Positions 25,066 through 47,097 of a stretch of DNA of 64,000 bases are shown one piece after another; position 1 is the stretch's first letter; each line of letters opens with the position of its first letter. This stretch comes from an uncultured Verrucomicrobiae bacterium. GTDB taxonomy: Bacteria; Verrucomicrobiota; Verrucomicrobiia; Palsa-1439. The position numbers were made by a program, and so were the translations under genes. The notes beneath the pieces are model-generated. The model worked only from the letters and a program-made list of their open reading frames with translations, was not told where the DNA came from and did no database searches. The stretch covers positions 410,942-474,941 of the forward strand of contig CAWEWF010000006.1 in the NCBI GenBank assembly GCA_963812605.1. Reading direction: 5' to 3'.

Positions 25066-25910
25066 ATGGATCTTCAACGCCAAGTGCCCAGCCCCGAAAC
25101 GTCTCAAGTGGTTTGGCGAGACCGATCGCGGCAAGGTTCGCTCCAATAATGAGGACGCCTTCCTGGGTCTTCGGTTCGACTCCAAAGAAGTTCACCATCT
25201 GGGAAAGCACGGGGAGGCGCCGACGAAGACCACGGACTTTGTTTTCGCGGTGAGCGATGGGATGGGCGGGGCAAAGGCCGGGGAATACGCCAGCCGAATT
25301 ACGATTGAAAAAATCACGGCACTGCTCCCGCGCTCGTTCCAACAATCCGCCGTGGGATTGGCCGCCGGGTTTGAAGATGTGCTGACGGAGCTTTTCAATG
25401 AAATCCACGAGCGCGCTGACGTACGTGGGGAGCAGTTACCATGAGTGCGCGGGGATGGAGGCCACCCTGAGCCTGTGCTGGTTCACGCCGCGCTGGATGT
25501 ATTTCGCGCATATCGGCGACAGCCGGATTTATTATTTGCCGGCGCGGGGTGGCGGGATCAAACAACTCAGCCAGGATGACACGCACGTGGACTGGCTGTT
25601 CCGCACCGGGCAGATCAATGAACGCGAGGCCCGTTCCCACCCGCGCCGCAACGTGCTCCAAAAAGCCCTCGGCGGCGACAACCAGTTTGTCGATCCGCAA
25701 TTCGGCGCAGTGGCCTATGAGCCCGGGGACATTTTTCTGCTCTGCACGGATGGTTTGGTGGAAGGCCTCTACGACAACCATCTCCTCGACCTGTTGCGCC
25801 CGCCTAAATCCGCCAAATCGCACGCCAACCCCGCGCGCCGCCTGGTGCAGGAGTCGCTGGAGAAAGACGGCCGCGACAACACCACCGCCCTCGTGATCCA
25901 GATGGTGTGA
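25066..25910 (+). CDS. PP2C-family Ser/Thr phosphatase, frameshifts near 25095 and 25410
   Basis: TDRGKVRSNNED, VSDGMGG, HIGDSRIY, LCTDGL, GRDNTT. Confidence 0.88.
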
Positions 25911-25955
25911 GAAATCAGCTCCCCGCTTTGGACGATTTGCGAACCTTTAGAATTC
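25911..25955. repeat. tRNA-end-like att repeat (motif L), outlying copy
   Basis: gaaatcagctccccgctttggacgatttgcgaacct. Confidence 0.85.
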
Positions 25956-25999
25956 AGTTGCCGAGACCGACGACTGGGGCACACCGATATTAGCCTGCA

Positions 26000-26605
26000 T
26001 TATTTCTGTATCTCGTACGCTTCTGAAAAGTCCTGCTTCGATGGCGTCTCTTCGTCGAGACCTGCGCTCAACAACGGGGAAACACTCGGCATCGGGTGGA
26101 CATACCACTTGCCGTTGCTGTCCTTGATCACCATCGTCCGATTGAGCGCATGGTCGCCGTTTTGGAGGAAAACTCCAACATCCACGAACATAATATCCTG
26201 AAAGTCAAATGACGCGTAACCGTACGACGCGGGCCCACTCATGCTGAGATGGCGCGCCGCGAAAACCTTCCCGACGGACTTCGGTCCACCTGGTGAAGGC
26301 TCCTTCTTGGCAGCTTCCGCCCTCATTCCGGCCATCGTGTTCATGAGAAACGTCGCATAATCCGCCGGTCCCCTACCGCCTCCGTAAAGCCTGATGCAAG
26401 TATTGGTGAACAGTGCGACATCACGGTTAATAAATGCTCGTGCCAAATCGCAAGCTGCGCCCTCTGGTGTATCGTGGCCACTCGGATAACCATCGGCGGC
26501 CACTCTCAATTTCGGCTTTGTGGCCGTGTCGGCAGCGACGGAATAGAGAATCATTGTGAAGATACAAAAAAGTGTTGTAAGCGCTTTCATATTGCGTGCG
26601 TGCAT
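26000..26605 (-). CDS. Hypothetical secreted protein (cassette gene)
   Basis: Signal peptide MKALTTLFCIFTMILYSVAA; flanked by motif L and motif R. Confidence 0.75.
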   Translation of the reverse strand: MHARNMKALTTLFCIFTMILYSVAADTATKPKLRVAADGYPSGHDTPEGAACDLARAFINRDVALFTNTCIRLYGGGRGPADYATFLMNTMAGMRAEAAKKEPSPGGPKSVGKVFAARHLSMSGPASYGYASFDFQDIMFVDVGVFLQNGDHALNRTMVIKDSNGKWYVHPMPSVSPLLSAGLDEETPSKQDFSEAYEIQK

Positions 26606-26623
26606 GGTCAGCTATGTGAAGCC

Positions 26624-26664
26624 CATTAGACCTCTGATAGAACCCCTAGGAAAGCACAAAAAAA
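26624..26664 (-). repeat. Promoter-like repeat (motif R), outlying copy
   Basis: cattagacctctgatagaacccctaggaaagcacaaaa. Confidence 0.85.
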
Positions 26665-26696
26665 GACCCTACCACTTAGATATTGTGGGCTGGGCT

Positions 26697-28139
26697 TTAC
26701 AGATACGGTGAAAATAACCGCGCTACGGCGTCGCGTAGTTTTGCGGGTAACGATCGCGCATTCACTTCCGCCAACGTGACCTCGCGCGCGCCGTGAAGTT
26801 TCCGTTGAATCACCGCTTCCATTTCACGGGCGAAATCGTGTCCGTAACATTCGAGGTTCAATTCAAAATTCAACCGCAGGCTGCGCGCGTCCCAATTCGC
26901 CGAGCCGAGCAGGACCCAGTGGCCGTCCACGATCATCAATTTGGAGTGGTCGAAGGGCGGTGGGGTGAGCCAGACACGACAGCCGCGTTTCAGCACCTGC
27001 CACCATAGGGCTCGTGAGGCCCAATGCACGAACGGCAGGTTGTTCTTCGCCGGCAGCAGAATGTCCACCCGCACGTCCCGCATCGCCGCGAGGTTCAGCG
27101 CGGTGATGAGCGCCGTGTCCGGCAAAAAATACGGCGTAACAATCTGCACGGACATTTGCGCCTCAGCCAGCGCCGCCAGCAGCGCCCAGCGGAATTTTTC
27201 GAAATCCTCATCCGGCCCGTCCGTGATGACGCGCGCGATGACTTCCCCGCATTCTTTCAATTCGGGGAACCAGATGTCGCTGTCGAGTGTTTCGCCGGTG
27301 GTGAAGGCCCAATCATTCACAAACGCCTCCTGCAATCGCGTCACCACCGGGCCTTCGACGCGAAATTGCAAATCCTGCACGGCATGTTGCGGGTGTTCGG
27401 CCAGGACGTTGCTGCGGCGGATGTTCATGCCGCCGGTAAAAGCCGTCCGGCCATCCGCAACGAGAAGTTTGCGGTGATTGCGCAGGTTGATTGTTGTCAC
27501 GCGCCAGGGGGTCAACAAAGAAGCCGGCAGGAATTTCGCAAACGGGACCTGCGCGCGTTTCAGTCGGTGGGTGATGGGCGGCCACGAGTAGCGCGTGCCG
27601 GCCGCGTCAATTAACACGCGCACAACCACCCCGCGTTTGACAGCGCGGCCCAGCGCGTCAACAAACTGTTTTCCGCTGGGGTCGTTATCGAAAATGTAGG
27701 TCGTGAACGCAAGGGACTTGGTGGCGGACTCGATCGCGGCAATCATGGCGGGAAACGCCGCGTCGCCGTTGACCAGTGATTGGACGCGGTTGCCAGGCGT
27801 CAGCGGCTGCCCGACGACGTGACTGACAACGCGCGCGAGTTGTTGCAGGTGCTGCGCTTCCACAGCCTCGGTTTCACCCAAATCTTCCGGAATGGGACGG
27901 CTGGTGATTTTATGTATGCCGAGGGAGATGGCGCGTCGGCGAATGCGGTTGATGCCGAACACCAGATACAGCATCGGCCCGAGCACCGGCAGAAACCAGA
28001 TGAGACCGATCCAGAGCGCCGCGGCACGCGAATCGCGCTTGTGTAGCAGGACGTGGATCGCGGCGAGCAGCGCCGCCAGGAAGCCAAAGCCCGCAACCAA
28101 ATGCGGCCAAAACCTCGAAATCGCCTGGGGCCAGTCCAT
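26697..28139 (-). CDS. cls: Cardiolipin synthase (PLD family)
   Basis: Two HKD motifs (RNHRKLLVADG, HSKLMIVDG), N-terminal TMs. Confidence 0.92.
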   Translation of the reverse strand: MDWPQAISRFWPHLVAGFGFLAALLAAIHVLLHKRDSRAAALWIGLIWFLPVLGPMLYLVFGINRIRRRAISLGIHKITSRPIPEDLGETEAVEAQHLQQLARVVSHVVGQPLTPGNRVQSLVNGDAAFPAMIAAIESATKSLAFTTYIFDNDPSGKQFVDALGRAVKRGVVVRVLIDAAGTRYSWPPITHRLKRAQVPFAKFLPASLLTPWRVTTINLRNHRKLLVADGRTAFTGGMNIRRSNVLAEHPQHAVQDLQFRVEGPVVTRLQEAFVNDWAFTTGETLDSDIWFPELKECGEVIARVITDGPDEDFEKFRWALLAALAEAQMSVQIVTPYFLPDTALITALNLAAMRDVRVDILLPAKNNLPFVHWASRALWWQVLKRGCRVWLTPPPFDHSKLMIVDGHWVLLGSANWDARSLRLNFELNLECYGHDFAREMEAVIQRKLHGAREVTLAEVNARSLPAKLRDAVARLFSPYL

Positions 28140-28213
28140 GGATGGAATACTTTTAGTGGAAGCGACTGCCCGACGCGAGGATTTAGAAGACCGGCTGGGT
28201 TGTCCGCCAAAAG

Positions 28214-28278
28214 GAAAGTTGGCTCCCCGCTTTGGACGGTATGCGAACCTTATGTTTTGAACTTCTGAGGGTTTCCGA
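28214..28278. repeat. tRNA-end-like att repeat (motif L), outlying copy
   Basis: gttggctccccgctttggacggtatgcgaaccttatgttttgaacttctgagggtttccg. Confidence 0.85.
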
Positions 28279-28309
28279 GCTAATAGAAGCCACGATCAAA
28301 TAAGGGGTA

Positions 28310-28894
28310 TCATTGATTGAGACCCGCCCGAGGAATTTTGGTCTTCGCGAGTCTCAAAACCCCCTTCCAAGCCAGAAGATGTTGCGTGCCTTGAGGTGGG
28401 CTAACTGCGAATGTGGCGGAGAGAAAGTAATCGTCCCGAGATTCAGCTGGTATGAGCCAAATACCCCCCAATCCGACAGACACTCCTCCCTGTTTAGAGG
28501 CGAACGTGTAACCGCTAGTAGAAACACGAAATCTCAATGTCGAATCGTACGGGATGACAATCCAATAAGGTGACGGCATCTGGATGCTGAGGGCGCAGGG
28601 CGGTGTAGGTGGTGGAGGTTTACCTGAAGAGTCGAGCACTTCAGATTCCAATGGGTTTACAGTGTTGTAGAAAATTTCCATCGGGCCGTTAATATTCAAA
28701 GCGTTTTGGAGTTCCAAATACACGACCGTCTCCCGCACGTTACCAATCCACCGCCCTTCCCCGGAGATCACCAATCGTCCTCGCAGTCCGTTGACCGTTT
28801 CAGACCAATCACCGACCGACATTGTATTGGTTCCCGCAGCTGCGATACAGCATTGAGAGCATACTAAGAGGAAGGAAAGTGCCATGGCTTTCAT
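28310..28894 (-). CDS. Hypothetical secreted protein (cassette-like gene)
   Basis: Signal peptide, GDWSETVNGLRGRL; visibly more AT-rich; ends just before motif L. Confidence 0.75.
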   Translation of the reverse strand: MKAMALSFLLVCSQCCIAAAGTNTMSVGDWSETVNGLRGRLVISGEGRWIGNVRETVVYLELQNALNINGPMEIFYNTVNPLESEVLDSSGKPPPPTPPCALSIQMPSPYWIVIPYDSTLRFRVSTSGYTFASKQGGVSVGLGGIWLIPAESRDDYFLSATFAVSPPQGTQHLLAWKGVLRLAKTKIPRAGLNQ

Positions 28895-29038
28895 GATGTG
28901 CGGATTCCACCAACCATTTGATTATGCCACGCGCAGCGTCACGATTGCGAATTAAAACGATGCGTTACCGTGCGCGTCCGCAGGTAGAACTCGAACCTCC
29001 GCTGACACCCCAGCCACCAGCCAGAGGCATGCTGACGA

Positions 29039-29809: not shown

Positions 29810-31278
29810 GACGTGGATGATTTCTTGATTTGTTTTAACAATGCTGCGGCAGGACTGCGCTTGTAATGGTCGTCCAACGGATAGCACCCGGACGGCAATC
29901 CGTGACGCGGCGCCGTCGTGCAATCGCTAAACGTCCGACAAATCTGCCGATGCTCGAGATGCCCCTGCTCCACTGCGTCCGCGAGCACGCGCGGATAGCT
30001 TAACACCACGCGACCGATGCCCACGCTGTCGACGTGCCCGTGCCGCAGGTAATACTGCGCCACGTGCGGAAGATATTCCTGCAGGTAGGTGTACGCCGAG
30101 CCGACGATGAGCAGGTTGGGAAACTTCGCCTTGAGTTCCCGGACCACGTTGATTTGCCGCGCGCAGCCGACAAGCGGATCCTCCGGCGGCAGGTAGCCGT
30201 CGGATGGTGGATAGGCGGCCGGCCGCTGGATGTGCGGATTGTAGTACGGACTGCCGGCCGATAGATTGATCAGCGTGATGCCGAGCCGCTCGCAGAGGCG
30301 AAGAAACTCAACGGCCTCGGTCAGGTCGTATTCCAGCGGGTTCTCCGCATTGACACCGAACGCATATCGGTACGGCAAACAATGCGAAAAATCCTCGGGG
30401 ATACCCGGTCCAGGTTTACCCGGTTTACTGAGCAGGGGATCGGGTTTGAAGGGCACGATGTCGAAAATGCTGACGCGCACCGCGAGGCCCAGTTTCGGGG
30501 CGGCGGCGCGAACGGCTGCCGCGATCTCGCGCAGCGGTCGTGTGCGATTCTCGAACGAACCGCCATATTGCCCGGCGCGTGTGTGAGCGCCGAGAAACTC
30601 GTGGAGCAGATAGCCGTGACAGTGCTTGATGTCCACGAAGTCTGCGCCCACCGCGGCGGCAATCCCGGCCGCCTTCGCATAGTCCTCGACGAGCTGTTTC
30701 ACTTCATCATCACTGAGAACCTGCGCGTCGCTCGTGACGCCGAATTTTGCGTCGAGAATCGGGTGTCGATAAGCCACGCGCGGTTCCGTCCGCTTTTTGT
30801 CATTCGGACGGCAGAAGCGCCCCGAATGCGTGAGTTGGAACCCGATCACGAGATCGTCGATGCGGCCAAAACCTTCGTGGTGGGCCGCGACCAGGGTTTC
30901 GCGTAACTGTGCCAGCCCTTTCTGGTTCGTATCATTAATAATGATCTGATTCGGATTGGCGCGACCTTCCGGGCACACCGCCATCGCTTCGCCGCCCCAA
31001 ATGAGTTTCGCGCCACTCGCGCCGAAATGCCGCCAGCGACGCATCATCGGCTCAGTAATACCGCCAGTGGTCGTGCCATCCCATCCTTCCATCGGCTGGA
31101 CACACCAGCGGTTGCCAATGGCGCGATTGTTCCACCGCAGCGTCCGCACCAACGGGGACGAGCTGCCACGGACAATTGTGTCTTCCGCGTGCAAATCGAT
31201 GCCGAGACCGGCGGCGTGGTCGCGAAACGCCTGAACCGTTCGCAAGCCGGGAATCCGCGTGATGGTGACGGGATTCAT
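29806..31278 (-). CDS. NADH:flavin oxidoreductase (Old Yellow Enzyme family)
   Basis: QPMEGWD, QLTHSGR, KHCHGYLLHEFL, YGGSFENRTR. Confidence 0.9.
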   Translation of the reverse strand: MNPVTITRIPGLRTVQAFRDHAAGLGIDLHAEDTIVRGSSSPLVRTLRWNNRAIGNRWCVQPMEGWDGTTTGGITEPMMRRWRHFGASGAKLIWGGEAMAVCPEGRANPNQIIINDTNQKGLAQLRETLVAAHHEGFGRIDDLVIGFQLTHSGRFCRPNDKKRTEPRVAYRHPILDAKFGVTSDAQVLSDDEVKQLVEDYAKAAGIAAAVGADFVDIKHCHGYLLHEFLGAHTRAGQYGGSFENRTRPLREIAAAVRAAAPKLGLAVRVSIFDIVPFKPDPLLSKPGKPGPGIPEDFSHCLPYRYAFGVNAENPLEYDLTEAVEFLRLCERLGITLINLSAGSPYYNPHIQRPAAYPPSDGYLPPEDPLVGCARQINVVRELKAKFPNLLIVGSAYTYLQEYLPHVAQYYLRHGHVDSVGIGRVVLSYPRVLADAVEQGHLEHRQICRTFSDCTTAPRHGLPSGCYPLDDHYKRSPAAALLKQIKKSSTS

Positions 31279-32606
31279 AAAAAGAACTTCAAGTACGGCT
31301 TCCCTTCGGCGATTCGCTGCACATACAACGCAACTTCGCGGGCGTGATAATCCCCCCACATGCTGGACTCGCCGCAGGGAACTTTGTGATTTGGCGGCAC
31401 GTGGTCCCAGCCATTCGGACGGTGGTACACGCTATGGAGAATCAGTCCTTGATGCCCGGCCCGGGCACCGAGATATGGTTCATCGAACAACGTGTCGAGG
31501 ATCGTCAGCCCGGCCTGCCAGTAGAGCGCTCCAGCCTTGCCGAGATAGCGCCCGAGCCGCAGCAAGCCTTGCGCGGCGATCACCGCCGCCGAGCTGTCCA
31601 CCGGCTCGAAGTCATTGAATGGATCGGCCGGCCGAGCCAGATAATCCCCCAGCTCGTGCAGCCCTGGCGCTCCTGTGTCCCAGTACGGGATGCCGTCAGT
31701 CGGGGTGTTGGCGATGTAGAAATCACAGGTCGCGCGCGCCGCCTTTTCGAACAACGCCCGGTGTCGCTTCTCTCCCGTGGCGTCGAGGAATTCCAGTTGT
31801 TCCGCGAACCCGCACATTGCCCACGCCAGTCCACGGGTCCAGGTCGTAAACGGCGAGTAGCCTTGTTGCGAATTGGGACAACGAAAACTGCCGTCGTTGA
31901 CATTGAAAATGGCCTCGTGCGCGACGCGTCCACGGACGTCAAACGCGTCGCGATGTTTACCGTAATAAATCGAGTACGTCGCGGTCGCGCGCACATGGTC
32001 GAGCAATCGCTCCAACAGCGAGATTCTCTTGTCGCTTTCGCCCATCAACACCTGCCCCAGTTGGTGCGCCATGGCCAGCGAGCGCAACGAGCGGATCGTG
32101 TCCACGAACAACGAATGGGGACCATTGAAGGAATAGATGTAGCCGCCGTCGCGAAGTTTCGTCCAGCGACTTGCCTGGACAGCGCCCGAACACTTCAGCG
32201 CCAGTTCGTAGAAATTGCGTTCCCAGGCGTTCTCCGCGATGCGACCCTCATTCATCAACCGCAACAAATTCCCGTACGTGCTAATGTTGTTGAATCCGTG
32301 GTCGTGCACGCCGGTGTGCGTGACGTGGCCCGCCATCACCTGCACCGTTTTCTCGCGGCCGATCCGCAGATACCGCTTGTCGCCCGTGGCATCGAACTGC
32401 AGGATCGCGGAACCGTATTGAAATCCCTGGGTCCATTCCGTCCACCCGCGCGCGGTATATTGTCCGCGCACGGTGAACACCGGCGAACCCTTCGAGGTAT
32501 CATAGCGCTTCTCGATGGCAGCGATTTTGGCCGACGACAACCGCCACAGGCGGTCGATTTTCCCGTGGAGGTGCGCGGGCCGCAGCGCGTGGTTGATCCT
32601 GAGCAT
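31275..32606 (-). CDS. GH88-like unsaturated glucuronyl hydrolase
   Basis: WTQGF, HDHGF, TWTRGLAWA, PYWD, DSSAA, WGDY. Confidence 0.85.
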   Translation of the reverse strand: MLRINHALRPAHLHGKIDRLWRLSSAKIAAIEKRYDTSKGSPVFTVRGQYTARGWTEWTQGFQYGSAILQFDATGDKRYLRIGREKTVQVMAGHVTHTGVHDHGFNNISTYGNLLRLMNEGRIAENAWERNFYELALKCSGAVQASRWTKLRDGGYIYSFNGPHSLFVDTIRSLRSLAMAHQLGQVLMGESDKRISLLERLLDHVRATATYSIYYGKHRDAFDVRGRVAHEAIFNVNDGSFRCPNSQQGYSPFTTWTRGLAWAMCGFAEQLEFLDATGEKRHRALFEKAARATCDFYIANTPTDGIPYWDTGAPGLHELGDYLARPADPFNDFEPVDSSAAVIAAQGLLRLGRYLGKAGALYWQAGLTILDTLFDEPYLGARAGHQGLILHSVYHRPNGWDHVPPNHKVPCGESSMWGDYHAREVALYVQRIAEGKPYLKFFL

Positions 32607-32610
32607 AATG

Positions 32611-33153
32611 CTAGAAGCGTTTCCCCTTGCGCAGGTGCAGGATGATGACCTGGCAATTGTCCAGCGCCTGGTAGGTGTGATGCAGGATCGCGTCGAATTG
32701 GATCGCCTCGCCCGATTTCAGTTGGTGCGTCTCGTGCGGAAGCGTAACGGAAAGTTTACCCGACAACACCCAGCACACCTCGTAGTCGTCGCGATGTATT
32801 TCCGGGCGCGAAACCTTGGCGCCCTTGGGCGCGGCCCCGAACAAGGCGCGCACATTGCCGTACTGAATCTCGCGGAACACGAATTCGCCGCCGACATGGG
32901 ATGCCTCCACCGCGCGCTGGGACGTACGGGCCTCTGCCAGCGCCAGCATCTCGGTGGCATTCATGCCGAACACGCGACTGAGTCGAAACAATGTCTCCAA
33001 CTCGGCGCTGGTCTGGTTGCGTTCGAGCTTGGAGATGACGGCGGAAGAGATGCCCGAACGCGACGACACATTTTGGATCGTCAGCCCGTCTCGTTTGCGC
33101 AGGTCGCGCAGGAAAGAGAAATCGTACGCCCGCGTTTCCGTAGTTTTACGCAT
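32611..33153 (-). CDS. XRE-family regulator with cupin domain
   Basis: HTH (SGIS..VISKLER) plus cupin (GEAIQFDA..HHTY). Confidence 0.9.
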   Translation of the reverse strand: MRKTTETRAYDFSFLRDLRKRDGLTIQNVSSRSGISSAVISKLERNQTSAELETLFRLSRVFGMNATEMLALAEARTSQRAVEASHVGGEFVFREIQYGNVRALFGAAPKGAKVSRPEIHRDDYEVCWVLSGKLSVTLPHETHQLKSGEAIQFDAILHHTYQALDNCQVIILHLRKGKRF

Positions 33154-33272
33154 CTGGATATTTCTTTGACAGCAACAACATGCGTAATAATCGACTGTTT
33201 GCGAAATATTGTCAAGGGAATAAACACCGTTTGCAAAACAGGATTACCCGGTCTAGTTTCGTCTGAAGGCAG

Positions 33273-33816
33273 ATGATGGCATTCGACCTGGAGAATATCC
33301 CGACGCGCAATCAGGCGGGCGCATTTCACGTGGTCGTTGAATCGCCCCGCGGGTCAGGCATCAAATTCAAGTACGAAACCGATTCTCGGCGCAATGGTCT
33401 TCGACCGCCCTCTCACAAGCGGCTTGGTCTATCCGTTCGACTGGGGTTTCGTGCCGGGTACGCGGGCCCCGGATGGTGATCCTTTGGATGCGCTGGTGAT
33501 GTTTGATCAACCCACCTTTCCCGGGGTTGTTATTGCCTGCCGTGCCCTGGGAGTCATCCGTCTGAAGCAAAAGCGTCACAAGCAAAAACATTGGCAGCGC
33601 AACGATCGAGTGATTGCCGTCCCGCTGAAAGCGCCCCGCTTCGAACACCTGCGCGATCCCGGTGATTTATCGCAACGCCAGCGAGACGAATTGGACCAGT
33701 TTTTCCTGTCCGCCATTCTGTTCGAGGATAAAGAGGCAAAAGTATTGGGCTGGGGCGGATCCCGCGAGGCCGAAAACCTCGTGGATAGCACCTGCACTTC
33801 CCGCAAATGCTCCTAG
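33273..33816 (+). CDS. ppa: Inorganic pyrophosphatase, frameshift near 33378
   Basis: VVESPRGS..KFKYE, YPFDWGFVPGT, DGDPLD. Confidence 0.85.
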
Positions 33817-34000
33817 GGAGTCGGCTGCTGCCCGAATCAGATTTCGTCTGATTGAAGCGCCTGCGATTCCGAAGGATTGTCGGGTGTACAGATTCGGGTT
33901 TTGAACAGGAGGCGGTTACATGAATGGAGCAACCAGGCCACTGGGCGCTGCCGAAAACAAGGATCCGGCTGGGCCATTTCCTTTTTTGGAAACGCCGCCG

Positions 34001-34987
34001 ATGGACCGTCGTGGTTTTCTGAAAGTGTCCGTCGCCACAGCGGTGTTTGCGGCAACGAGCGGGATCACCTGGGCAATGGATGAAAAGGCGGGCATTCCGC
34101 GGCGGAAACTCGGCCGGACCGGCGAAAGTGTTTCCATGATCGGTCTCGGTGGTTTCCACCTTGGAATGCCCAGCGAGGAGACAAGCCTGCGCATTGTTCG
34201 CACGGCCATCGATAACGGCATGAACTTTCTCGATAACTGTTGGGACTACAATGGCGGTGTCAGTGAAATACGGATGGGCAAAGCTTTGCGCGACGGTTAT
34301 CGCGACCGCGCTTTTCTGATGACGAAAATCGATGGACGAGATCGCTTTACGGCTCAAAAGCAAATTGATGAATCCCTGCGTCGGCTACAGACCGATCATC
34401 TTGACCTGCTGCAGTTGCACGAAGTGATTCGATTAAACGATCCGGACCGGACCTTCGCCAAGGGCGGGGCCATTGAAGCGTTGTTAGAGTCCCAGAAGGC
34501 CGGGAAGACGCGTTTTCTGGGTTTCACCGGACACAAGGACCCTCAGATTCACCTGAAAATGCTCGAAGCCGCCGCGGCACACGACTTCCACTTCGATACC
34601 GTGCAAATGCCTCTCAACGTCATGGACGCGCATTTTAACAGTTTCGAGAAAAAAGTATTGCCCGAACTCGTGAGGCAACAGATCGGTGTGTTGAGCATGA
34701 AACCCATCGGCAGCGGTGTTATTCTGGAGAGCAAAACCGCCAGCGCCGTGGAATGTCTGCACTATGCGATGAATCTGCCAACGAGCGTGGTCATTACGGG
34801 TTGTGACTCCCTGGCCATCTTGCAACAGGCGTTGGATGCCGCCCGCGGTTTTCGCCCGATGAGCGAGGACCAGGTTTCAGCGTTGCTCGCCAGGACAGCC
34901 CAGGCATCCAACATTGGACAATTTGAGCTGTACAAAACCTCCCCGCGATTCGATAGCACACAGCAGCATATCGAGTGGTTGGGCTAG
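34001..34987 (+). CDS. Aldo/keto reductase with Tat signal
   Basis: MDRRGFLK; GLGGFHLG, DNCWDY, LQTDHLDL. Confidence 0.9.
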   Translation: MDRRGFLKVSVATAVFAATSGITWAMDEKAGIPRRKLGRTGESVSMIGLGGFHLGMPSEETSLRIVRTAIDNGMNFLDNCWDYNGGVSEIRMGKALRDGYRDRAFLMTKIDGRDRFTAQKQIDESLRRLQTDHLDLLQLHEVIRLNDPDRTFAKGGAIEALLESQKAGKTRFLGFTGHKDPQIHLKMLEAAAAHDFHFDTVQMPLNVMDAHFNSFEKKVLPELVRQQIGVLSMKPIGSGVILESKTASAVECLHYAMNLPTSVVITGCDSLAILQQALDAARGFRPMSEDQVSALLARTAQASNIGQFELYKTSPRFDSTQQHIEWLG

Positions 34988-35194
34988 GCGCGATCCCCGT
35001 GCGATGTACTCCGTATTATCTCTGATTGCGCTCTCGGAAGGCTTCCTAGAGTAGAATCGGGAAGCCTCCGATTGCCGGACATTCGGCAAATATGCTTATC
35101 TTTCCTCGATAATGCGAAAGACATTGTTTGGGGAACCGCGACTTCCGGTTATGTCTCGTCCAAATAACGCGGATAGTGCAGGAAGAGGCCGTTC

Positions 35195-40951
<5,757 letters not shown>

Positions 40952-40960
40952 GAAACCAAT

Positions 40961-42106
40961 ATGCTGACCGCACTCAGAACCGAACGGAAGATGACGACGG
41001 AACCGCAGGAATCACCGGCCGCGGACAGCCCGGTCAGTATCCTGCTCGTGGACGATGACGCCCGCAACCTCGATGCGCTGGAAAGCATTCTCGATTTCCC
41101 AGGGTACCATTTGGTGAGCGCGCAGACTGCCGAGGAGGCGCTGCTGGCGTTGATCTCGAATGACTTTGCGGTGATCGTGCTCGACATCCGCATGCCGGGA
41201 ATGAACGGCCTGGAACTGGCCCAGATCATCAAGCAGCGCAAAAAGACCCAGCACATCCCCATCATCTTTTTGACCGCGTACTATCAGGAGGGGGACCAGA
41301 TGATCAACGGTTACGATGCGGGCGCCGTTGATTATCTAAGCAAGCCGTGCAACCCGGTCGTCCTCCGTTCGAAGGTTTCTGTGTTTGTCAGCCTTTTCCG
41401 CAACGCGCGCGCACTTCAGACGGAAATCAGCGAGCGCCGGCGCCTGGAATCCGAACTTGCCCGGGCCATTGAGCGCGAACAACTGCGCCTGGGCCAGGAA
41501 CTGCATGATGGCCTCGGCCAGCAATTGACCGGCATCTGTTACATGATACAGGCGCTCCAGGCCAAACTCCAGAAAGCATCGCCGATGGCCGCGCGGGAAC
41601 TGGAAAGGTTGGGGTCGCTGATGCAGCAAAGCATCGACCAATCTCGCGACCTGGCAAAGGGATTCTATCCGGTGGAGTTGGAAAGGCTCGGGTTGCTGAC
41701 CGCGCTGCAGGAAATCAGCTCCAAGATGAGACAGCGCTCCAACATTTGCTGCGTGGTGGAATCGGATGGGGATCCATTCTGTTCCAACCTGAAAGGTCCG
41801 GTGGCGATCCAGCTTTTCCGCATCGCCCAGGAAGCGATGCACAACGCGATCAAACATTCCCAGGCAAAGCGGATTGTGGTGCGTCTGGCGTCGACTAACG
41901 GTCATATTATCCTCACCGTCAAAGACGATGGGATCGGTTTCAATGCCCATGCAAGAACCAAAAAGGGAATGGGCCTGGCCATCATGCAGTATCGGGCGAG
42001 AATGGTGGACGGGACTTTGGATATTCGGACCACGGACGAAGGCGGCGTGGTCGTCACTTGCTCGGCGCCGCTGGAAGCCTTGAAAGATGCCGCTCGCGCC
42101 GATTAA
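40961..42106 (+). CDS. Receiver-HisKA_3 histidine kinase
   Basis: ILLVDDD, ELHDGLGQ, KDDGIG, GMGL. Confidence 0.92.
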   Translation: MLTALRTERKMTTEPQESPAADSPVSILLVDDDARNLDALESILDFPGYHLVSAQTAEEALLALISNDFAVIVLDIRMPGMNGLELAQIIKQRKKTQHIPIIFLTAYYQEGDQMINGYDAGAVDYLSKPCNPVVLRSKVSVFVSLFRNARALQTEISERRRLESELARAIEREQLRLGQELHDGLGQQLTGICYMIQALQAKLQKASPMAARELERLGSLMQQSIDQSRDLAKGFYPVELERLGLLTALQEISSKMRQRSNICCVVESDGDPFCSNLKGPVAIQLFRIAQEAMHNAIKHSQAKRIVVRLASTNGHIILTVKDDGIGFNAHARTKKGMGLAIMQYRARMVDGTLDIRTTDEGGVVVTCSAPLEALKDAARAD

Positions 42107-42166
42107 GGCAGCCTCGCGGCAACGGTGCGCCGGTTTCGGGCGTTGCCTGAACGATGATCTCGATGC

Positions 42167-43021
42167 TCAGGAACCGATTCGTTTGCGCAACCGCCTTTTC
42201 ACATCGGCCTGGAACTCATCGATGAACCCGCATACATACTCAACAATATCGCGCGACTCATCGACTACCAGCGGCGTCAGATCCATGCCAAACGCCACCG
42301 CCGTGGCCTGATCCGTGGCGTGGGACTTGAAGAACGTCGCGTTGGCACGACGACGACCGAGCACGGCAAGGTCGTAACGCTTGCCACCCGCAATTTGCGA
42401 AGCAAACACGCTGTTGATCGCCGCGGCGAGGTCCTCGTGACCGCTGACATCCATCAGCACCTTGCGCTCATCGGCCAACCAATCGAGATCACGCCAGACT
42501 TCGCAGCCCCAAACTTTCCGTGGACGTCGTTCCGTCGGTAATTCGCGCATTGCCTGGAGCGCGGCGATAACGACGCCGATGTGTGTATCGTGTTTGTCGG
42601 CGGGATTATGGGTGTAGAGAATCTGCGGATGCATTGCGGCGAGCAATTGCTTCAAGTCGTCCTGCAACGCGGTATCGGCCGAATTCCTGACGGCAGTGCT
42701 GGAGTAACCGAGTTGCGCCATCAATCCGTAGCGTCCAATCGTTGCGGCGGCTTTCTGTTCCTGGCGACGGACAGCCTGCATTTGTTCGTCGGTGTGGTTG
42801 GCGTACACGCCGAGGCGCGCGCTCCCGCCGCCATCCGTACAGGTGATCCCCCCGAACCCTTTGTTGTCAGCCTGATAACATTCCACAATCCCGTGGAAGG
42901 CCATGAACTCCAGGTCATCCTGATGCGCGCCGATCCCCAAATGCGTGATACGACGGAGCGCTGCCTCAACAGGCTGGCCGTCCGGCACAAAGATCTCCGC
43001 GGACTCGTTGCGCAGTTTCAC
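42167..43021 (-). CDS. PIG-L family deacetylase
   Basis: GAHQDDLE, THNPADKHDTH; GTG start inferred, in-frame ATG also at 43144. Confidence 0.85.
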   Translation of the reverse strand: MKLRNESAEIFVPDGQPVEAALRRITHLGIGAHQDDLEFMAFHGIVECYQADNKGFGGITCTDGGGSARLGVYANHTDEQMQAVRRQEQKAAATIGRYGLMAQLGYSSTAVRNSADTALQDDLKQLLAAMHPQILYTHNPADKHDTHIGVVIAALQAMRELPTERRPRKVWGCEVWRDLDWLADERKVLMDVSGHEDLAAAINSVFASQIAGGKRYDLAVLGRRRANATFFKSHATDQATAVAFGMDLTPLVVDESRDIVEYVCGFIDEFQADVKRRLRKRIGS

Positions 43022-43183
43022 GATCTTCTCCTCAACGCCGGCAGACCGGCGAGCGGCCTGGCCGACCAATAGTCCGCCATACACGCCCGCCACCAAGTTG
43101 GTGAGTGCGATCAGAAAAGTTTCTCTTTTGGTCAAGACGCGCATCGGGCTGTTTTCTCCACAACGGTCGGAGGTGCAAATTTG

Positions 43184-43220
43184 ATTAAACCTCTGATGGA
43201 ACCACGAGGAAAGCTCAAAA
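43184..43220 (-). repeat. Promoter-like repeat (motif R)
   Basis: attaaacctctgatggaaccacgaggaaagctcaaaa. Confidence 0.85.
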
Positions 43221-43290
43221 GCGCCCCATCCCACCCGGAATTGTGGGTTTCAACAGCCCACAGCCGCAGCGGAGACTGGGGAGGTAAATA

Positions 43291-43350
43291 TTGAAATTGG
43301 CTCCCCGCTTTGGACGGTTTGCGAACCTTGCGGTTCGAACTTTCAAAGGC
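43291..43350. repeat. tRNA-end-like att repeat (motif L)
   Basis: ttgaaattggctccccgctttggacggtttgcgaaccttgcggttcgaac. Confidence 0.9.
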
Positions 43351-43359
43351 TGCCACGGT

Positions 43360-43446
43360 GGCTGTCGTAGACCCTCAGACCGCGCAGGCCCCAGAGCATC
43401 CAAGCGGAGTGCGCGGGCGGCGGCTGCCTGCAGGGTCTTGTTAGCC
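43360..43446 (-). mobile_element. Degenerate integron attC-like site
   Basis: Minus strand GGCTAAC-AAGAC-CCTGCAGG...TCTGAGG-GTCTAC-GACAGCC, immediately 3' of a cassette gene. Confidence 0.6.
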
Positions 43447-43464
43447 GTTGTGGCCTGTGATTTC

Positions 43465-43947
43465 TCATTTCGCTCTCTCCAAAATCATAGCCTCCCCGCC
43501 GTCTGGATCGCCCAACGTGAAAATCAATCCATAAGGCGGCTTCTGTCCAGTCAGGCCGACTGGCTTAATCTTTGCACTCGGAGAATCCAAGTACACTCCC
43601 CAGTGTGTCTTGAGCGACCCGTTGCCGTTGTCAATCGAACCAACACTGTCAATGCGCCAAGTGCCCGAGGCTGTCAAAAGCGAACTGAAAAAGTTCGTGC
43701 CAGTCGAACCAAGCTCCCACGGCGGAACGTTCGTGGCGGTGAATGTGCCATCTGCTTGCAGATAAATGAGGCAAGGCTTGCCCTGAAACGCCGCCAATCC
43801 ACCTTGTGTAACTGTCTGACTTGCCAGCATGTAGAGACCGGCAACATCTGCAGTCTGCGGCTTCTCGGTTGTGTAGAGGTGTGCGTATGGGTCATACTGA
43901 CAACCCTGCGCCAACAACAAGATCGTAAGAAATGAGAGAACGCGCAT
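43465..43947 (-). CDS. Hypothetical lipoprotein (cassette gene)
   Basis: MRVLSFLTILLLAQGC lipobox-like start at 43947. Confidence 0.75.
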   Translation of the reverse strand: MRVLSFLTILLLAQGCQYDPYAHLYTTEKPQTADVAGLYMLASQTVTQGGLAAFQGKPCLIYLQADGTFTATNVPPWELGSTGTNFFSSLLTASGTWRIDSVGSIDNGNGSLKTHWGVYLDSPSAKIKPVGLTGQKPPYGLIFTLGDPDGGEAMILERAK

Positions 43948-43956
43948 AGAAATGCT

Positions 43957-44035
43957 ATTAGACCTTTGATAGAACTGTGAGGAAAGACCAAAATACGTCC
44001 CCGCTTTGGACGGTTTGCGAACCTTGCGGTTTGAA
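43957..44035. repeat. Cassette junction: motif R + motif L
   Basis: attagacctttgatagaactgtgaggaaagaccaaaa-tacgtccccgctttggacggtttgcgaaccttgcggtttgaa. Confidence 0.9.
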
Positions 44036-44146
44036 ATGGTCAGCGTCTGATTATCTCGGACTGCGGTGCCAGCCACGCGCGCGTTCGTGGCCGTGCCGAT
44101 GTCGAGATAGTTGCCCCTGGTTCGCTCCAGTGATTTTGTTAGGCAC

Positions 44147-44596
44147 CTAATTGACATCACCAAGATAGATCGTGTGAAAGTCGCCCAGACCTTTCTGAAA
44201 AAGCTTCGGGTAGACCCGAACACTACCCAAGCTTTCGAGGGGCACCCATTCCACATCAACCTGATTGGTATCCCTCATTTCTCCGTTCCTGGGTTCTGGT
44301 CCGGACACCAGACCACACTCGAAGTACAATTCCACCTGATGAACATCACCGTCAGACTCCGGAAATTCATGGTTCCTTCCGATGTACTCGCGCACAAGAC
44401 GCAGCGGCCCGACAGAAATCGATATGCCTGTCTCTTCGAAGCATTCCCGGCGTAGCGCGGCAAGCATGTCCTCGCCGGGATTTTGCCCACCTCCAGGGAA
44501 AACGTACCAGAAGCCATCTTGATCAATGTTCTTGATGAGGAGCACATGACGGTCACGGATTATGATCGCTTTGATAGAGTTGCGAATTGGCTTCAT
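44147..44596 (-). CDS. NUDIX hydrolase (cassette gene)
   Basis: PGGGQNPGE....ALRRECFEETG Nudix box. Confidence 0.9.
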   Translation of the reverse strand: MKPIRNSIKAIIIRDRHVLLIKNIDQDGFWYVFPGGGQNPGEDMLAALRRECFEETGISISVGPLRLVREYIGRNHEFPESDGDVHQVELYFECGLVSGPEPRNGEMRDTNQVDVEWVPLESLGSVRVYPKLFQKGLGDFHTIYLGDVN

Positions 44597-44623
44597 ATCT
44601 TCCTTCCAGATCGGCGCGTTCCC

Positions 44624-44720
44624 ATTAAATCTCTGATGGAACCACTAGGAAAGCACAAACGGGGCTCTCCGCTTCTGGCGCTTTGCGAACCTGGCCGGTT
44701 TGAGGTACTGAGGGCTTCCG
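44624..44720. repeat. Cassette junction: motif R + motif L
   Basis: attaaatctctgatggaaccactaggaaagcacaaac-ggggctctccgcttctggcgctttgcgaacctggccggtttga. Confidence 0.88.
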
Positions 44721-44754
44721 TGTTATCAAAGGCTTTGCATACCACACCGACTGC

Positions 44755-45243
44755 TTAGAAAATTCCCGATTTCGCATACTCGCGGAACTTCTGCCGTTGT
44801 TCGGGGGTAAACGAACTCTTTGGAATGACCGATGCAAGACCGGTTTTGGAAAGGTGGAGATAAAAGTAATCGGCATCTTCCGAGAACCCGTGAAATCTCG
44901 TCCACGGCATTTCGCTTCTCCAGTCCGGTCCGACAACTACCAGGCGCGACTGGCCGAACTCGACTGTCTTCGGATCAGTTAACTGAGAGTTACCATCGAC
45001 CACCCTGCCGAGGCCCCGGTAAAGAAAGATTGGGAGTAAGACACATAGCACGAAAAGAAAAATACCGATAGACTGACTGCCGCGATCAAACGCGAGGAGG
45101 AACATGCCGCAGACGAGCAACGCCGCCATGCTTGCGAGACGACGGGGGCGAAACATCATGCGCCTCCACAAAATCCGGACAAGAACATCGCGTGGCATTT
45201 TGTAGCTAATGGATGAACTCTCAAGAAGTGGAGGAGGTTCCAT
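44755..45243 (-). CDS. YcxB-like membrane protein (cassette gene)
   Basis: Two TMs then SEMPW..F....ED..YFYL....VIPK.SF; ATG at 45243. Confidence 0.75.
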   Translation of the reverse strand: MEPPPLLESSSISYKMPRDVLVRILWRRMMFRPRRLASMAALLVCGMFLLAFDRGSQSIGIFLFVLCVLLPIFLYRGLGRVVDGNSQLTDPKTVEFGQSRLVVVGPDWRSEMPWTRFHGFSEDADYFYLHLSKTGLASVIPKSSFTPEQRQKFREYAKSGIF

Positions 45244-45253
45244 TGCTTGGCTG

Positions 45254-45350
45254 ATTAAACCTCCGATCAACCCCGGAAGAAAGCACAAAAAAGGAGTCCC
45301 CGCATTGGGCGATTTGCCAACCCGGCGGTTTGAACTTCCGAGGGTCACCG
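45254..45350. repeat. Cassette junction: motif R + motif L
   Basis: attaaacctccgatcaaccccggaagaaagcacaaaaaa-ggagtccccgcattgggcgatttgccaacccggcggtttgaacttccgaggg. Confidence 0.85.
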
Positions 45351-45378
45351 ATTGTTGTTCGCTTTTCCTCAGGCGAAA

Positions 45379-45815
45379 TCCGCCTTCGCTAAAGCTACGG
45401 AGGACAAGCCTGCTCGGTTATCGTTAATCGATAATTGTTCTGGACACGGTGTTTCCGGGTAGGTATAGTCGGGGAGTAAACAAGTGAACACTCAATGTTC
45501 AACTCTCCGTCGCGAGTATGGAAATACCCCTCACCCTAACCCTCTCCCCCAAGGGGAGAGGCAAGCGGAATGGCAAGGCTTCCGCCGTCGCTCTTCGAGC
45601 TATGGCGGACAGGTCGGCGCGACTTGCGGGGGGGCCCCTATACGTTTCTGCGAAACGAACCCACCGTTTTTTGACGGAATTTATATTGTAAATGCCTATG
45701 AATGCATGCGTTATGCAAGAAATGCGCGAGGTGAATCGGTGGGTTCGTTTTGGAAAACGAACCCACCGGGGAGGGTTTTTGGGGTCGTTTCCGGTGAAAA
45801 GTGGGTTCGTTTTAG
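45379..45815. repeat. Cluster of short palindromic/REP-like and aacgaacccac elements
   Basis: ccgccttcgctaaagctacggagg; ccctcaccctaaccctctcc..ggagagg; ccgccgtcgc..gctatggcgg; several aaacgaacccac / gtgggttcgtttt. Confidence 0.65.
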
Positions 45816-45935
45816 GAAAGCGAAGCCGGTTGCCCCAGACGACAACGGCATTTGGCTCGGCTCCGTCCGACTCGGCTTGCGGCGCAACGAGTTTGAAATT
45901 GGCTCCGCGCGTTGGACGGTTTGCGAACCTGGCGG
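45797..45935. repeat. ~110-bp direct repeat copy ending in a hybrid tRNA-end/motif L junction
   Basis: Similar to 46921-47030; ...ttgaaattggctccgcgcgttggacggtttgcgaacct. Confidence 0.88.
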
Positions 45936-46068
45936 CTATAGATCGTGCGTGGGCTTTGAGGTCGCTCAGTGGTCGATCTCTGCAACGGGCAAGAAATCTG
46001 CTCAAATTCCTATTGTTCCAAGCCGAGCGAAAGGATATGGAATACGTAGGTTGTTTCAGGCTGCGTCA

Positions 46069-46914
46069 ATGAGATTTTACAAACTCGATCAGGTTACGAT
46101 TTCTCGCGAGGATCACGTTTTCAAGGTCTCGCCGACCTTCCAGACGATCGGGCTGTTCATGACGTCGGGAGTTGTTCTGACTTTGCTGGTCCTCGCCATT
46201 CGCAGCGGAATACACCGCCACGTGGTTCCCGCATTTTTCGGCTGCGCCTTCGCGGGGATGTTCGGTTTATTCACGCTGAATAGCTACGGTTCCTCACGCG
46301 CCAGCCGCATGCCTACCAACTGGCTCCTGCGGTGTCACGCTCGCGGGCTCTTGATCCATTATCGGTCATACCGGAACTGGCGCTTTCCCGCTGACACTCC
46401 CCAGGTCGTCGGCTGGGATTACGCGGAGATTGCGTGGGTGCGCGTCGCCAAGGAAAGGCGCATCGTTCCCAGTATGGCGCACGGAGCGAACAGTTCCGAA
46501 ACGCATTTCATGACCTTTGTGGAATTGGGACTGGTGAATCCGGATACGACCGAGTTGGAAAAGTATCTCAGTGCGGACCGCAACCTTTCTGCAGGAGTCG
46601 GCTTGGTTGTGGGGGATTACCCGGTGCAGGTGTTGCCGGGTGGAATCGTGCAGATGTCCTGGAGCGGCATGCACCCGTCCGCGCATCACGCGGTGGAATG
46701 CCTCGGTCGCCATGTGAAAATCGTCGAGACGGACCATCGCGTCGTCGATCTCACCCCTCATTCCAAGACGCCGCCTGAGGAGGAGCGTCAGAAAATCCTC
46801 CAGCTCGTAAGATCTGGCGACGTTCTTGCGGCCGTGACCATGGCGCAACGGGTCCACGGCTATTCGCTGACCGAGGCCCACGAGTTTGTGGAAAAGCTAA
46901 AGACAGAAACGTAA
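46069..46914 (+). CDS. Hypothetical membrane protein with a C-terminal L7/L12-like helical tail
   Basis: Two TMs; ends AAV....VHGYSLTEAHEFVEKL; upstream extension in the ORF track runs through repeats. Confidence 0.65.
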   Translation: MRFYKLDQVTISREDHVFKVSPTFQTIGLFMTSGVVLTLLVLAIRSGIHRHVVPAFFGCAFAGMFGLFTLNSYGSSRASRMPTNWLLRCHARGLLIHYRSYRNWRFPADTPQVVGWDYAEIAWVRVAKERRIVPSMAHGANSSETHFMTFVELGLVNPDTTELEKYLSADRNLSAGVGLVVGDYPVQVLPGGIVQMSWSGMHPSAHHAVECLGRHVKIVETDHRVVDLTPHSKTPPEEERQKILQLVRSGDVLAAVTMAQRVHGYSLTEAHEFVEKLKTET

Positions 46915-46920
46915 GGGGCC

Positions 46921-47030
46921 AAAAGTGGGTCGTTTCAGGAAAACGAAACTCGTTGCCGCGGACGACAGCGGCACCTGGCTCGGCTTCGTTCGACTCGGCT
47001 TGCGGCACAACGAGGTTGAAATTGGCTCCG
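46921..47030. repeat. ~110-bp direct repeat copy abutting the tRNA-Asn 3' end
   Basis: aaaagtgggtcgtttcaggaaa...cgactcggcttgcggcacaacgaggttgaaattggctccg. Confidence 0.88.
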
Positions 47031-47097
47031 CAGGTAGGACTCGAACCTACAACCCGCGCATTAACAGTGCGCTGCTCCACCATTGAGCTACTGCGGA
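47023..47097 (-). tRNA. tRNA-Asn(GTT)
   Basis: Cloverleaf TCCGCAG...GCGCA-CTGTTAA-TGCGC...GTAGG-TTCGAGT-CCTAC-CTGCGGA-G-CCA. Confidence 0.97.

Follow-up and report, generated by a model that had tools for sequence, protein, structure and literature searches.

This report concerns an array of small gene cassettes that lies downstream of a tRNA-Asn gene in an uncultured Verrucomicrobiae bacterium (GCA_963812605.1). The window, that is, the whole stretch of DNA that was analysed, is 64,000 nt long, and its home genome, G000, comprises 4.17 Mb in 15 contigs and is 90% complete. The comparison set consists of 18 genomes of one Verrucomicrobiia genus, with a single metagenome-assembled genome (MAG) per species, together with 85 matching stretches in metagenome contigs. 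A preliminary description of the window had reported unrelated single genes separated by a two-part junction of motifs L and R, and this arrangement is confirmed: copies of both motifs lie between single genes downstream of tRNA-Asn. We write L' and R' for the motifs read on the minus strand (the gene strand), where the tRNA and most array genes are encoded and the order is L', R', start codon. In window coordinates, the features are as follows.

47023..47097, minus strand: intact tRNA-Asn(gtt), head of the array (ARAGORN; Rfam tRNA, 69.7 bits)
46927..47022, minus strand: module D', the immediate 3' flank of the tRNA, a hairpin and then a T-rich run (repeat search; three-way alignment with G004)
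46072..46914, plus strand: cassette gene nearest the tRNA, 280 aa, without a Pfam family, in the opposite orientation to the other cassettes and missing at the empty site of G004
45893..45935, minus strand: hybrid site (L copy 1) that forms the distal junction of the proximal cassette (core 45904-45929, 2 mismatches)
45804..45892, minus strand: module D, older copy, colinear with the sequence directly after tRNA-Asn in G004
45349..45803, no strand: repeat-rich spacer with no convincing gene (dispersed short repeats of families I5, D4 and D6)
45254..45341, minus strand: junction L2+R2, with the L' core (45297-45322) directly followed by R' (45289-45254)
44755..45243, minus strand: YcxB-like cassette gene (Pfam PF14317; present in 1 of 18 genus genomes)
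44624..44712, minus strand: junction L3+R3 (repeat and profile searches)
44147..44596, minus strand: NUDIX hydrolase cassette gene (Pfam)
43957..44045, minus strand: junction L4+R4 (core 43998-44023, pattern matched exactly)
43465..43947, minus strand: lipoprotein-like cassette gene, 160 aa, no Pfam family, within the genus found in G000 only (1 of 18)
43184..43348, minus strand: split junction of L5 (core 43302-43327), a hairpin module of ~70 nt (43220-43290) and R5 (43184-43219)
42167..43144, minus strand: PIG-L family deacetylase gene (Pfam), the last unit, behind R5 and with no L after it
25911..28997, minus strand: a second array of the same kind, shorter

The array units are co-oriented, compact (630-770 bp) and mostly single-gene, and their genes have unrelated functions. 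At the head of the array, the last bases of the tRNA gene are GGTTCGAGTCCTACCTGCGGA, followed by GCCA and then ATTTC, and this end is the model for the L sites. Module D' is a second copy of 45804-45892 with 84% identity (repeat family D2, 114 nt), and the inverted gene at 46072-46914 is flanked by these two copies of the tRNA's own 3' flank. L copy 1, on the distal side of that gene, combines an L-type body (GGTTCGCAAACCGTCCAACGCG) with a tRNA-type end (CGGAGCCAATTTCAA). The YcxB-like gene starts 11 nt beyond the R' of junction L2+R2, the product of 43465-43947 has an N-terminus (MRVLSFLTILLLAQGC) that resembles a lipoprotein signal, and L5, whose tail is GCCAATTTCAAT, is followed by a hairpin module that recurs after L sites elsewhere. 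The spacer contains a perfect 15+15 palindrome at 45737-45768 (CGGTGGGTTCGTTTT/AAAACGAACCCACCG) and, at 45527-45562, a short dispersed element that translates as ...LTLTLSPKGRGK... and gives a weak, sub-threshold Rfam match of Whalefall-1-like type.

A repeat search recovers L (repeat family D1) five times, at 43291, 43987, 44655, 45286 and 45893, with 70-100% identity to the reference copy, and R (repeat family D3) four times, at 43184, 43957, 44624 and 45254, with 78-100% identity. With up to three mismatches allowed, the 26-nt core of L matches the window six times against 0.00 expected from 100 shuffles; four of these matches lie in the array at tRNA-Asn and two, at 25920 and 28224, in the second array. 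The L copy at 44655 carries an indel and escapes the core pattern, and is recovered by nhmmer (E=4.4e-13). A 34-nt R pattern gives two window matches, again with 0.00 expected. Profile searches of the whole of G000 return L 22 times (E<1e-4) and R 17 times (E<0.05), distributed over approximately ten loci.

Over 81 distinct contexts, the conserved L' block is ~48 nt long (CCCTCGGAAGTTCAAACCGC AAGGTTCGCAAAYCGTCCAAAGCGGGGA) and consists of a left arm of ~22 nt (CCCTCGGAAGTTCAAACCGCAA) and the 26-nt core (GGTTCGCAAAYCGTCCAAAGCGGGGA), which is almost invariant. Immediately beyond GGGGA(GCC), conservation is no higher than noise, apart from a weaker GCCAATTT tail. The junction query matches all 17 of the other genus genomes, one of seven genomes from other genera of the family and none of 16 from beyond the family. 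The L core (up to three mismatches) is present in 17 of the 18 genus genomes, and its count per genome ranges from 0 (G013) and 1 (G014) to 35 (G008); a reversed-pattern control gave 0. Exact matches among 185,579 species genomes amount to 39 loci, all of them in Verrucomicrobiia MAGs from peat, bog or soil, and the core has no matches among viral contigs. One arm of L', and only one, bears a loose likeness to a Xer/dif-like site.

The preliminary description had noted that the junction lacks the geometry of an attC site, and folding bears this out. There is no conserved pairing in the 81 L' copies on either strand (RNAalifold, 0 kcal), and six single-strand DNA folds (three junctions, both strands) give z-scores between -0.93 and +0.35 with no end-to-end stem. 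Rfam searches of the window and the junctions return only tRNA, plus matches at chance level, so that a structured RNA or a known RNA family is ruled out by the Rfam and RNAalifold results. A weak terminator-like hairpin was flagged at one L'/R' joint (44012-43996), that is, at one of four junctions, and is not relied on here.

With respect to genes, L' typically lies 10-140 nt after a same-strand stop codon, and a same-strand open reading frame (ORF) ends within 170 nt of it in 37 of the 48 contexts with enough flank. The genes that end before L' are diverse and include many that encode large TPR-repeat and PEP-CTERM proteins. R' lies at the opposite end of its gene: 15 of the 17 copies precede an ORF of at least 98 aa within 83 nt (5-83 nt ahead of the start codon). 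The preliminary description had included a promoter in each unit; R fared less well in this role, since a sigma-70 consensus scan did not flag R', which may at most be a candidate promoter. L' itself was also considered as coding sequence; three frames are open by eye, but the contexts are diverse and the start of the lipoprotein-like gene falls after R', and this candidate was set aside as well.

The origin of L' is apparent from its alignment with the tRNA-Asn genes of G000 and G004. In this three-way alignment, the distal L copy departs from the tRNA-Asn 3' end by a 5-nt insertion and some substitutions and shares GCGGAGCCAATTTCAA with it; the L copy reads AGGTTCG, the inserted CAAAC and then CGTCCAACGCGCGGAGCCAATTTCAA, against AGGTTCG, a gap of five positions and AGTCCT(G/A)CCTGCGGAGCCAATTTC in the tRNA, which is the T-loop and acceptor end. 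On the gene strand, L' is a diverged copy of the T-arm and acceptor end of tRNA-Asn, and the proposal that L is an att-like copy of the tRNA end is upheld. Intermediate forms that join a tRNA-type T-arm to an L-type GGGGA end are present in G002 and G008 (e.g., GGTTCGAGTCCTACGTGGGGA in G002). A derivation of L' from the anticodon arm of tRNA-Ala(CGC) was rejected, as only 7 nt are in common; the tRNA in question, a 91-nt ARAGORN call 'tRNA-Ala(cgc)' at G000 C14:697567-697657, appears to be a false positive (odd length, poor arms). G000 also contains a second, much diverged tRNA-Asn(gtt) at C14:750654-750728, whose tail and flank are not L-like.

Unaltered pieces of the tRNA end are present as well. 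The 21-nt end of tRNA-Asn has, with the real gene included, three matches in G000, six in G012 and five in G005 (control, 0). In G000, bare tRNA-Asn fragments stand directly before R' at C14:591420, C13:~60905 and C14:~868940, and the fragment at 28977-28997 heads the second array of the window. In G012, the R' of a NUDIX cassette is preceded by a tRNA-Asn fragment that ends in ...GGTTCGAGTCCTGCCTGCGGA, with CTCC between the two. The array on contig C10 of G000 begins at a decayed tRNA-like sequence ending in ...TTTGGGGA. We call it 'decayed tRNA-like' only: pairwise comparison with tRNA-Ala and tRNA-Glu indicates remnants of the D, anticodon-stem and T arms, and its assignment as a tRNA pseudogene was dropped because Rfam returns nothing at E<=1. 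Two further kinds of left arm were observed. A sister site family (L108-L111, L094 and L095; G012 and G006) has another left arm (TACAAAATGGCCGAGAATTGAGGATTCGGA) joined to the unaltered tRNA-Asn 21-mer, with GCCAATTTC flanks or R' on its right side, and a third left arm (..CAGGAAAACAGAGGTACAAA + GGCGCGAGTCCT..) is found in G016, G011 and G001.

That these sequences act, or have acted, as one class of site is indicated by their right-hand flanks. A clustering of right flanks (60 nt each) covered 113 distinct sites, namely 72 L-type sites, 23 bare tRNA-type fragments and 18 genuine tRNA-Asn genes, and six flank families span the site types. Module X lies to the right of five genuine tRNA-Asn genes, one fragment and one L'; module D to the right of two tRNA-Asn genes and two L'; module Y to the right of one tRNA-Asn gene, two fragments and one L'; and R' to the right of two L' sites and three fragments. 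One entire R'-lipoprotein cassette stands behind a fragment at one G000 locus and behind L' at another. Since these six families are common to tRNA genes, fragments and L, the sites are interchangeable. The L-type and tRNA-type cores have at most ~12 nt of identity at the junction, which is too short for RecA-type exchange. Homologous recombination therefore seems an unlikely route, and site-specific recombination would be the simpler account.

Gain, loss and replacement have occurred unit by unit at the boundaries. At the tRNA-Asn locus, a HAD-hydrolase gene and the tRNA are kept in 16 of the 18 genomes, and homology to G000 ends between window positions 46922 and 47020 in the 14 relatives with contigs that reach the tRNA (in a fifteenth, G003, the contig ends at 47060). 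L sites are found within 12 kb downstream of tRNA-Asn in six of 15 relatives (G006, 5; G004, 6; G015, 2; G010, 1; G009, 2; G008, 1) and not in G012, G016, G005, G001, G007 or G013; the contigs of G011, G003 and G017 are too short for this count. No relative carries a cassette gene of G000 at this locus, and cassette content is wholly different between species with HAD genes that are 87-90% identical. G004 provides an empty site, in which tRNA-Asn, D and the older DNA are contiguous, whereas G000 has ~1.1 kb extra (D', the ORF at 46072-46914 and the hybrid L). Units are also found in more than one place: the tRNA-Asn array of G006 and contig C10 of G000 have in common a 955-nt cassette (89.5% identity) whose PEP-CTERM gene is inverted, and the homology extends from the end of ...GGGGA to the next L'. 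The PIG-L gene is accessory: four of the 18 genomes have it, on other contigs and with neither R nor L. G012 carries a 132-nt 5' piece of the NUDIX gene behind R and a tRNA-Asn 3' fragment.

The second array of the window is organised in the same manner. On the minus strand, its order is a tRNA-Asn 3' fragment (28977-28997), orf194, L (28215-28271), a cardiolipin-synthase-like gene of the PLD family (26697-28139), R (26622-26661), orf201 (26000-26605) and L (25911-25947). The block at window 29020-33216, which begins beside the fragment, is syntenic in seven relatives that have no fragment, L or R there. One metagenome locus (L166) keeps the flanks of this array (82.7% identity on one side; 75.6% and 85% on the other), and its R'-to-L' slot holds an unrelated gene, with no BLASTP alignment to that of G000; extra units are present as well. 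The junction between L' and the PLD gene is common to G000 and G012. Together with the empty site in G004, the C10 cassette and the flank families, the exchanged slot agrees with the view of the preliminary description that the units are portable and turn over at the junction boundaries.

We consider it slightly better than even, with a probability of roughly 0.55, that the array arose by tandem accretion anchored at tRNA-Asn, with cassettes stacked and exchanged by site-specific recombination at att sites derived from tRNA-Asn, the enzyme acting in trans or being now gone. In this scheme, short modules without an integrase, mostly of one gene, would be stacked downstream of tRNA-Asn, and each would be closed on the gene strand by L' as a derived att site. 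The sequence after the L' core would then belong to the next module and would be either GCCAATTTC with D, X or Y, or the leader R'. In classical terms, L' would correspond to the P-O part of attP or to attR, and R', D, X and Y to P' or B' arms. Exchange would probably be catalysed by a tRNA-Asn-type tyrosine integrase supplied in trans, with crossover presumably near the boundary between GGA and GCCAATTTC, and R' may supply expression signals.

Several observations weigh against this account. Only two of the approximately ten L loci in G000, namely the tRNA-Asn array and one near tRNA-Met, are within 5 kb of a tRNA, so that most are distant from any tRNA gene. On the right, the boundary falls either after GGGGA or after GCCAATTTC, and on the left it is sharp, at GGTTCG; a single crossover point does not account for this pattern. 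Two L' sites adjoin inverted genes, and thus L' is not strictly a gene-3' element. The NUDIX gene is present in G016 and G001 (91% nt identity) without R or L, so that capture may also be at work in place of common mobility. Four DNA runs, represented by low-depth Logan contigs only, revealed no circular or excised form; the joints in these contigs resemble other repeat copies and are uninformative on excision or expression. Repeats are prone to assembly breaks, each species is represented by one MAG, and the contigs of several relatives stop at tRNA-Asn. Finally, no recombinase consistently adjoins L sites, and tandem accretion leaves unexplained both the very strong conservation over 48 nt and the bare tRNA fragments that head arrays far from tRNAs. 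(In contigs of three of the runs, X1-X3 of one study, position 46972 is joined back to 45643 with 22 other letters between; this joint probably reflects a further copy, elsewhere in the genome, of the D and hairpin repeats.)

The claim that cassettes are stacked at tRNA-Asn must accordingly be qualified. Several other arrays begin with a bare tRNA-Asn 3' fragment or a decayed tRNA, which is in its favour, but the stacking is not specific to this locus, as the ~10 loci attest. A scattering of L and R independent of tRNAs and gene ends had been named in advance as the outcome that would count against a gene-capture platform; the copies are indeed scattered, mostly away from tRNAs, which is one half of that outcome.

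The search for an enzyme gave the following results. No G000 match to PF00589, PF00239 or PF01797 (tyrosine, serine and Y1 recombinases) lies inside the window, where DDE transposases were not searched for, and the earlier statement that the window lacks an integrase holds in this sense. An integrase lies within 5 kb of L in three cases (G000 C14, G010:C62 and G041) among the matches listed plus G041; 79 L and 104 integrase matches lie beyond those that the genus-wide statements of proximity cover. The integrases of G000 C14, G005 and G041 have a mutual identity of only 21-32%, and the ORFs taken from G010:C62 matched none of them. Among 80 metagenome loci there are two or three integrase-like matches, and tblastn of seven G000 recombinases against the loci gives one neighbour, at L026. 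The genus-wide PF00589 matches listed and the pairwise identities yielded no common cognate integrase, and among these matches no recombinase gene consistently adjoins motif L. Three adjacent tyrosine-recombinase genes are clustered at G015:C16:30067-32605 and at G003:C15:29842-32381, the former beside the block that is syntenic with window 29020-33216.

Two loci outside the window place L' units in the neighbourhood of integrases. The first (G005:C3, L107, 6000-25900) begins, on the tRNA strand, with a HAD gene and tRNA-Asn. Next come an element of 4.9 kb whose tyrosine integrase is split, half a tRNA (45 nt), a further integrase and a tRNA fragment, and then a large TPR-repeat gene and a repeat-protein gene, each with an L' behind it. 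The integrase-bearing elements are thus proximal and the integrase-less L' units distal, as serial integration predicts. This is the second HAD-tRNA-Asn locus of G005, and its HAD copy is broken; given the 4% contamination of G005, the contig may belong to another strain. The second locus (G000 C14:866535-871110, L066) is a 4.5-kb integrative element at tRNA-Met with 30-nt direct repeats at 866582 and 871081, an integrase that overlaps the tRNA end and an AlpA-like gene. Here an L'-lipoprotein-R' unit with a degenerate tRNA-Asn fragment at its head adjoins the integrase and AlpA-like genes.

A bolder version of site-specific accretion, which we put forward only tentatively and think unlikely, is that soil Verrucomicrobiia have independently evolved an analogue of the integron. 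The 48-bp linear double-strand site from the tRNA-Asn tail would serve as attC, the tRNA-Asn 3' end and its bare copies as attI, and a host tyrosine recombinase acting in trans would capture, stack and swap leader-carrying single-gene cassettes genome-wide.

Among the alternatives to accretion by site-specific exchange, the one that survives best, although we find it doubtful, is a fossil island, built by old integrations at tRNA-Asn and now inert, in which L' and R' persist as signals at gene ends and starts, or are young, and later shuffling was due to homologous recombination between repeats of 50-90 nt. Such an island would fit the lack of a recombinase in cis and of an orthologous integrase beside L. 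The L'-PLD junction common to G000 and G012 may predate their split, the two D copies are just 84% identical, and the regular placement of L' after ORF ends (37 of 48 contexts) and of R' before ORFs (15 of 17) would also suit gene-end and gene-start signals. An inert island is difficult to reconcile with an L' core that is near-identical in 81 unrelated contexts of ~17 species with unrelated flanks, with copy numbers that swing from 0 to 35 among species, with flanks exchanged between L-type and tRNA-type sites that have ~12 nt in common, and with cassette content that is wholly different despite 87-90% identity of the HAD gene.

We think it rather improbable that L and R are an ordinary dispersed intergenic repeat (REP, BIME, BOX or MITE-like) that a transposase or some copying process has spread, with a secondary likeness to tRNA and an array that consists of small genes each acquiring a repeat. 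The dispersal itself (~22 L and 17 R copies at ~10 loci, mostly distant from tRNAs), the confinement to one genus, the modular build from short families (L, R, D, X and the hairpin module) and the presence of five Y1 (IS200/RAYT-type) transposase genes in G000 are all what such a family would display. None of the five genes is near an L copy, however, and the copies have no palindrome or hairpin. By eye, the L'+R' unit shows no inverted ends and no target duplications, and the repeat search found no inverted ends at the junctions. The 19-22 L copies are also far below the number for typical REPs, usually >100 per genome according to the outline in PMC2817692. L does not appear to insert alone but to bound exchanged DNA, and genuine tRNA-Asn genes replace L before the same flanks.

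A regulon signal, with L' as operator and R' as promoter of small accessory genes under one regulator or sigma factor, is very unlikely. R' does lie at a fixed short distance ahead of start codons, and the L' core holds a 16-bp imperfect dyad by eye (AAGGTTCGCAAACCGT), but an operator has no need of near-perfect identity over 48 nt, L' is often on its own behind stop codons or ahead of inverted genes, the sigma-70 scan did not flag R', and orthologues of the NUDIX and PIG-L genes lack both motifs in relatives. A regulon would also leave the tRNA homology and the flank exchange unaccounted for. Least credible of all is a true chromosomal integron cassette array or CALIN with L/R as attC sites, despite the compact, co-oriented, mostly single-gene units of 630-770 bp with unrelated functions and a conserved site between them, and junction ends (ATTAAAC ... 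GTTTGAA) that by eye loosely resemble R'' and R' boxes, as the 90%-complete genome has no integron integrase (IntI, TIGR02249; best 92 bits against a cut-off of 265), neither strand forms an attC-type hairpin (z -0.93 to +0.35), and the conserved part is a linear 48 nt homologous to the tRNA end.

Accretion at tRNA-Asn can also be placed among known systems. Tandem accretion of integrative elements and CIMEs at tRNA genes and other 3' gene ends is described in outline in a review (PMC5704250) and for ICEberg (PMC6323972). As in those descriptions, the units here have direct repeats homologous to the target 3' end (L, the bare 21-nt fragments and the common flanks), are stacked at one site, some of them lacking an integrase, so that they would depend on one in trans, and exhibit insertion polymorphism at the tRNA 3' end (G004 empty, G000 filled). 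They differ in that the array units are of 0.6-1.1 kb with a single gene, the site is a diverged 48-nt derivative kept genus-wide instead of a plain copy of the tRNA end, arrays are found away from tRNAs as well, and no conjugation or mobilisation genes or cognate integrase were identified.

The tycheposon islands of Prochlorococcus (bioRxiv 10.1101/2020.12.28.424599) are, as sketched there, tRNA-seeded: successive integrations push older elements outward, with partial tRNA copies between them and degenerate remnants and further partial tRNAs scattered about, and the cargo consists of adaptive accessory genes. The serial accretion from a tRNA, the partial tRNA copies and the remnants are alike. 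The hallmark pair of an integrase and a replication module is not seen in the window, in which tyrosine and serine recombinases are lacking (the family searches did not extend to replication genes); the cassette products are NUDIX, YcxB and PIG-L proteins and proteins of no known family. In addition, the present units are much smaller, the T-arm of the att copy is disrupted and its left arm is a conserved one of its own, and the host is a Verrucomicrobium of soil and peat.

Compared with integrons and CALINs in the outline given by PMC4889954, there are several points of likeness: compact, mostly co-oriented single-gene cassettes that each have one end site, a fixed entry site at the head (the tRNA end in the place of attI), hypervariable content among relatives and arrays without a neighbouring integrase. 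Here IntI and a folded single-strand attC are lacking and nothing points to a common Pc promoter; the sites are linear, double-stranded and homologous to the tRNA end, and many cassettes have their own leader R'. The word 'integron-like' in the preliminary description is thus apt for the logic of the array and not for membership, for which the integrase and the attC fold are lacking. REP and BIME elements differ from L in the respects given above, namely pairing, copy number (19-22) and proximity of Y1_Tnp genes. In the ssrA islands of Dehalococcoides, a hypervariable region likewise results where the 3' end of a small stable-RNA gene is a recurrent target of site-specific integration, as stated in the abstract of PMC3146451. 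Those islands are reported to have their own recombinase and to be several kb long, unlike the recombinase-less units here. What sets the present arrays apart from all of the systems compared is the combination of single-gene units, a diverged genus-wide 48-nt site with its own left arm, a common leader R' and dispersed arrays headed by bare tRNA fragments. Our literature searches turned up no account of this repeat, nor of cassette sites derived from a tRNA tail in Verrucomicrobia.

If the sites are active, the genus would have a means of cassette exchange independent of the integron machinery, with the tail of a tRNA that has become a portable site of recombination. Small accessory genes (NUDIX hydrolase, YcxB-like, lipoprotein-like, PEP-CTERM and large TPR-repeat proteins) would be shuffled by it in abundant uncultured bacteria of peat and soil, which would provide a concrete mechanism behind strain-level variation in gene content in these organisms, and the 26-nt core would be a simple sequence-defined marker of flexible regions in metagenomes. 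Even if the arrays are fossil, they document how serial integration at a tRNA can decay into units of a single gene that lack an integrase and have a derived att site as their boundary.

A search for the left end of the variable region did not locate it; pieces of window 23500-43200 are spread over different contigs in the relatives. Within this interval, 35195-40951 encodes a hybrid sensor kinase of 1918 aa, in which near-identical repeats of ~90 aa, HAMP-like by eye, form a long run; the kinase gene is followed by a response-regulator/kinase gene at 40961-42106, and G014 retains this block at 81% identity.

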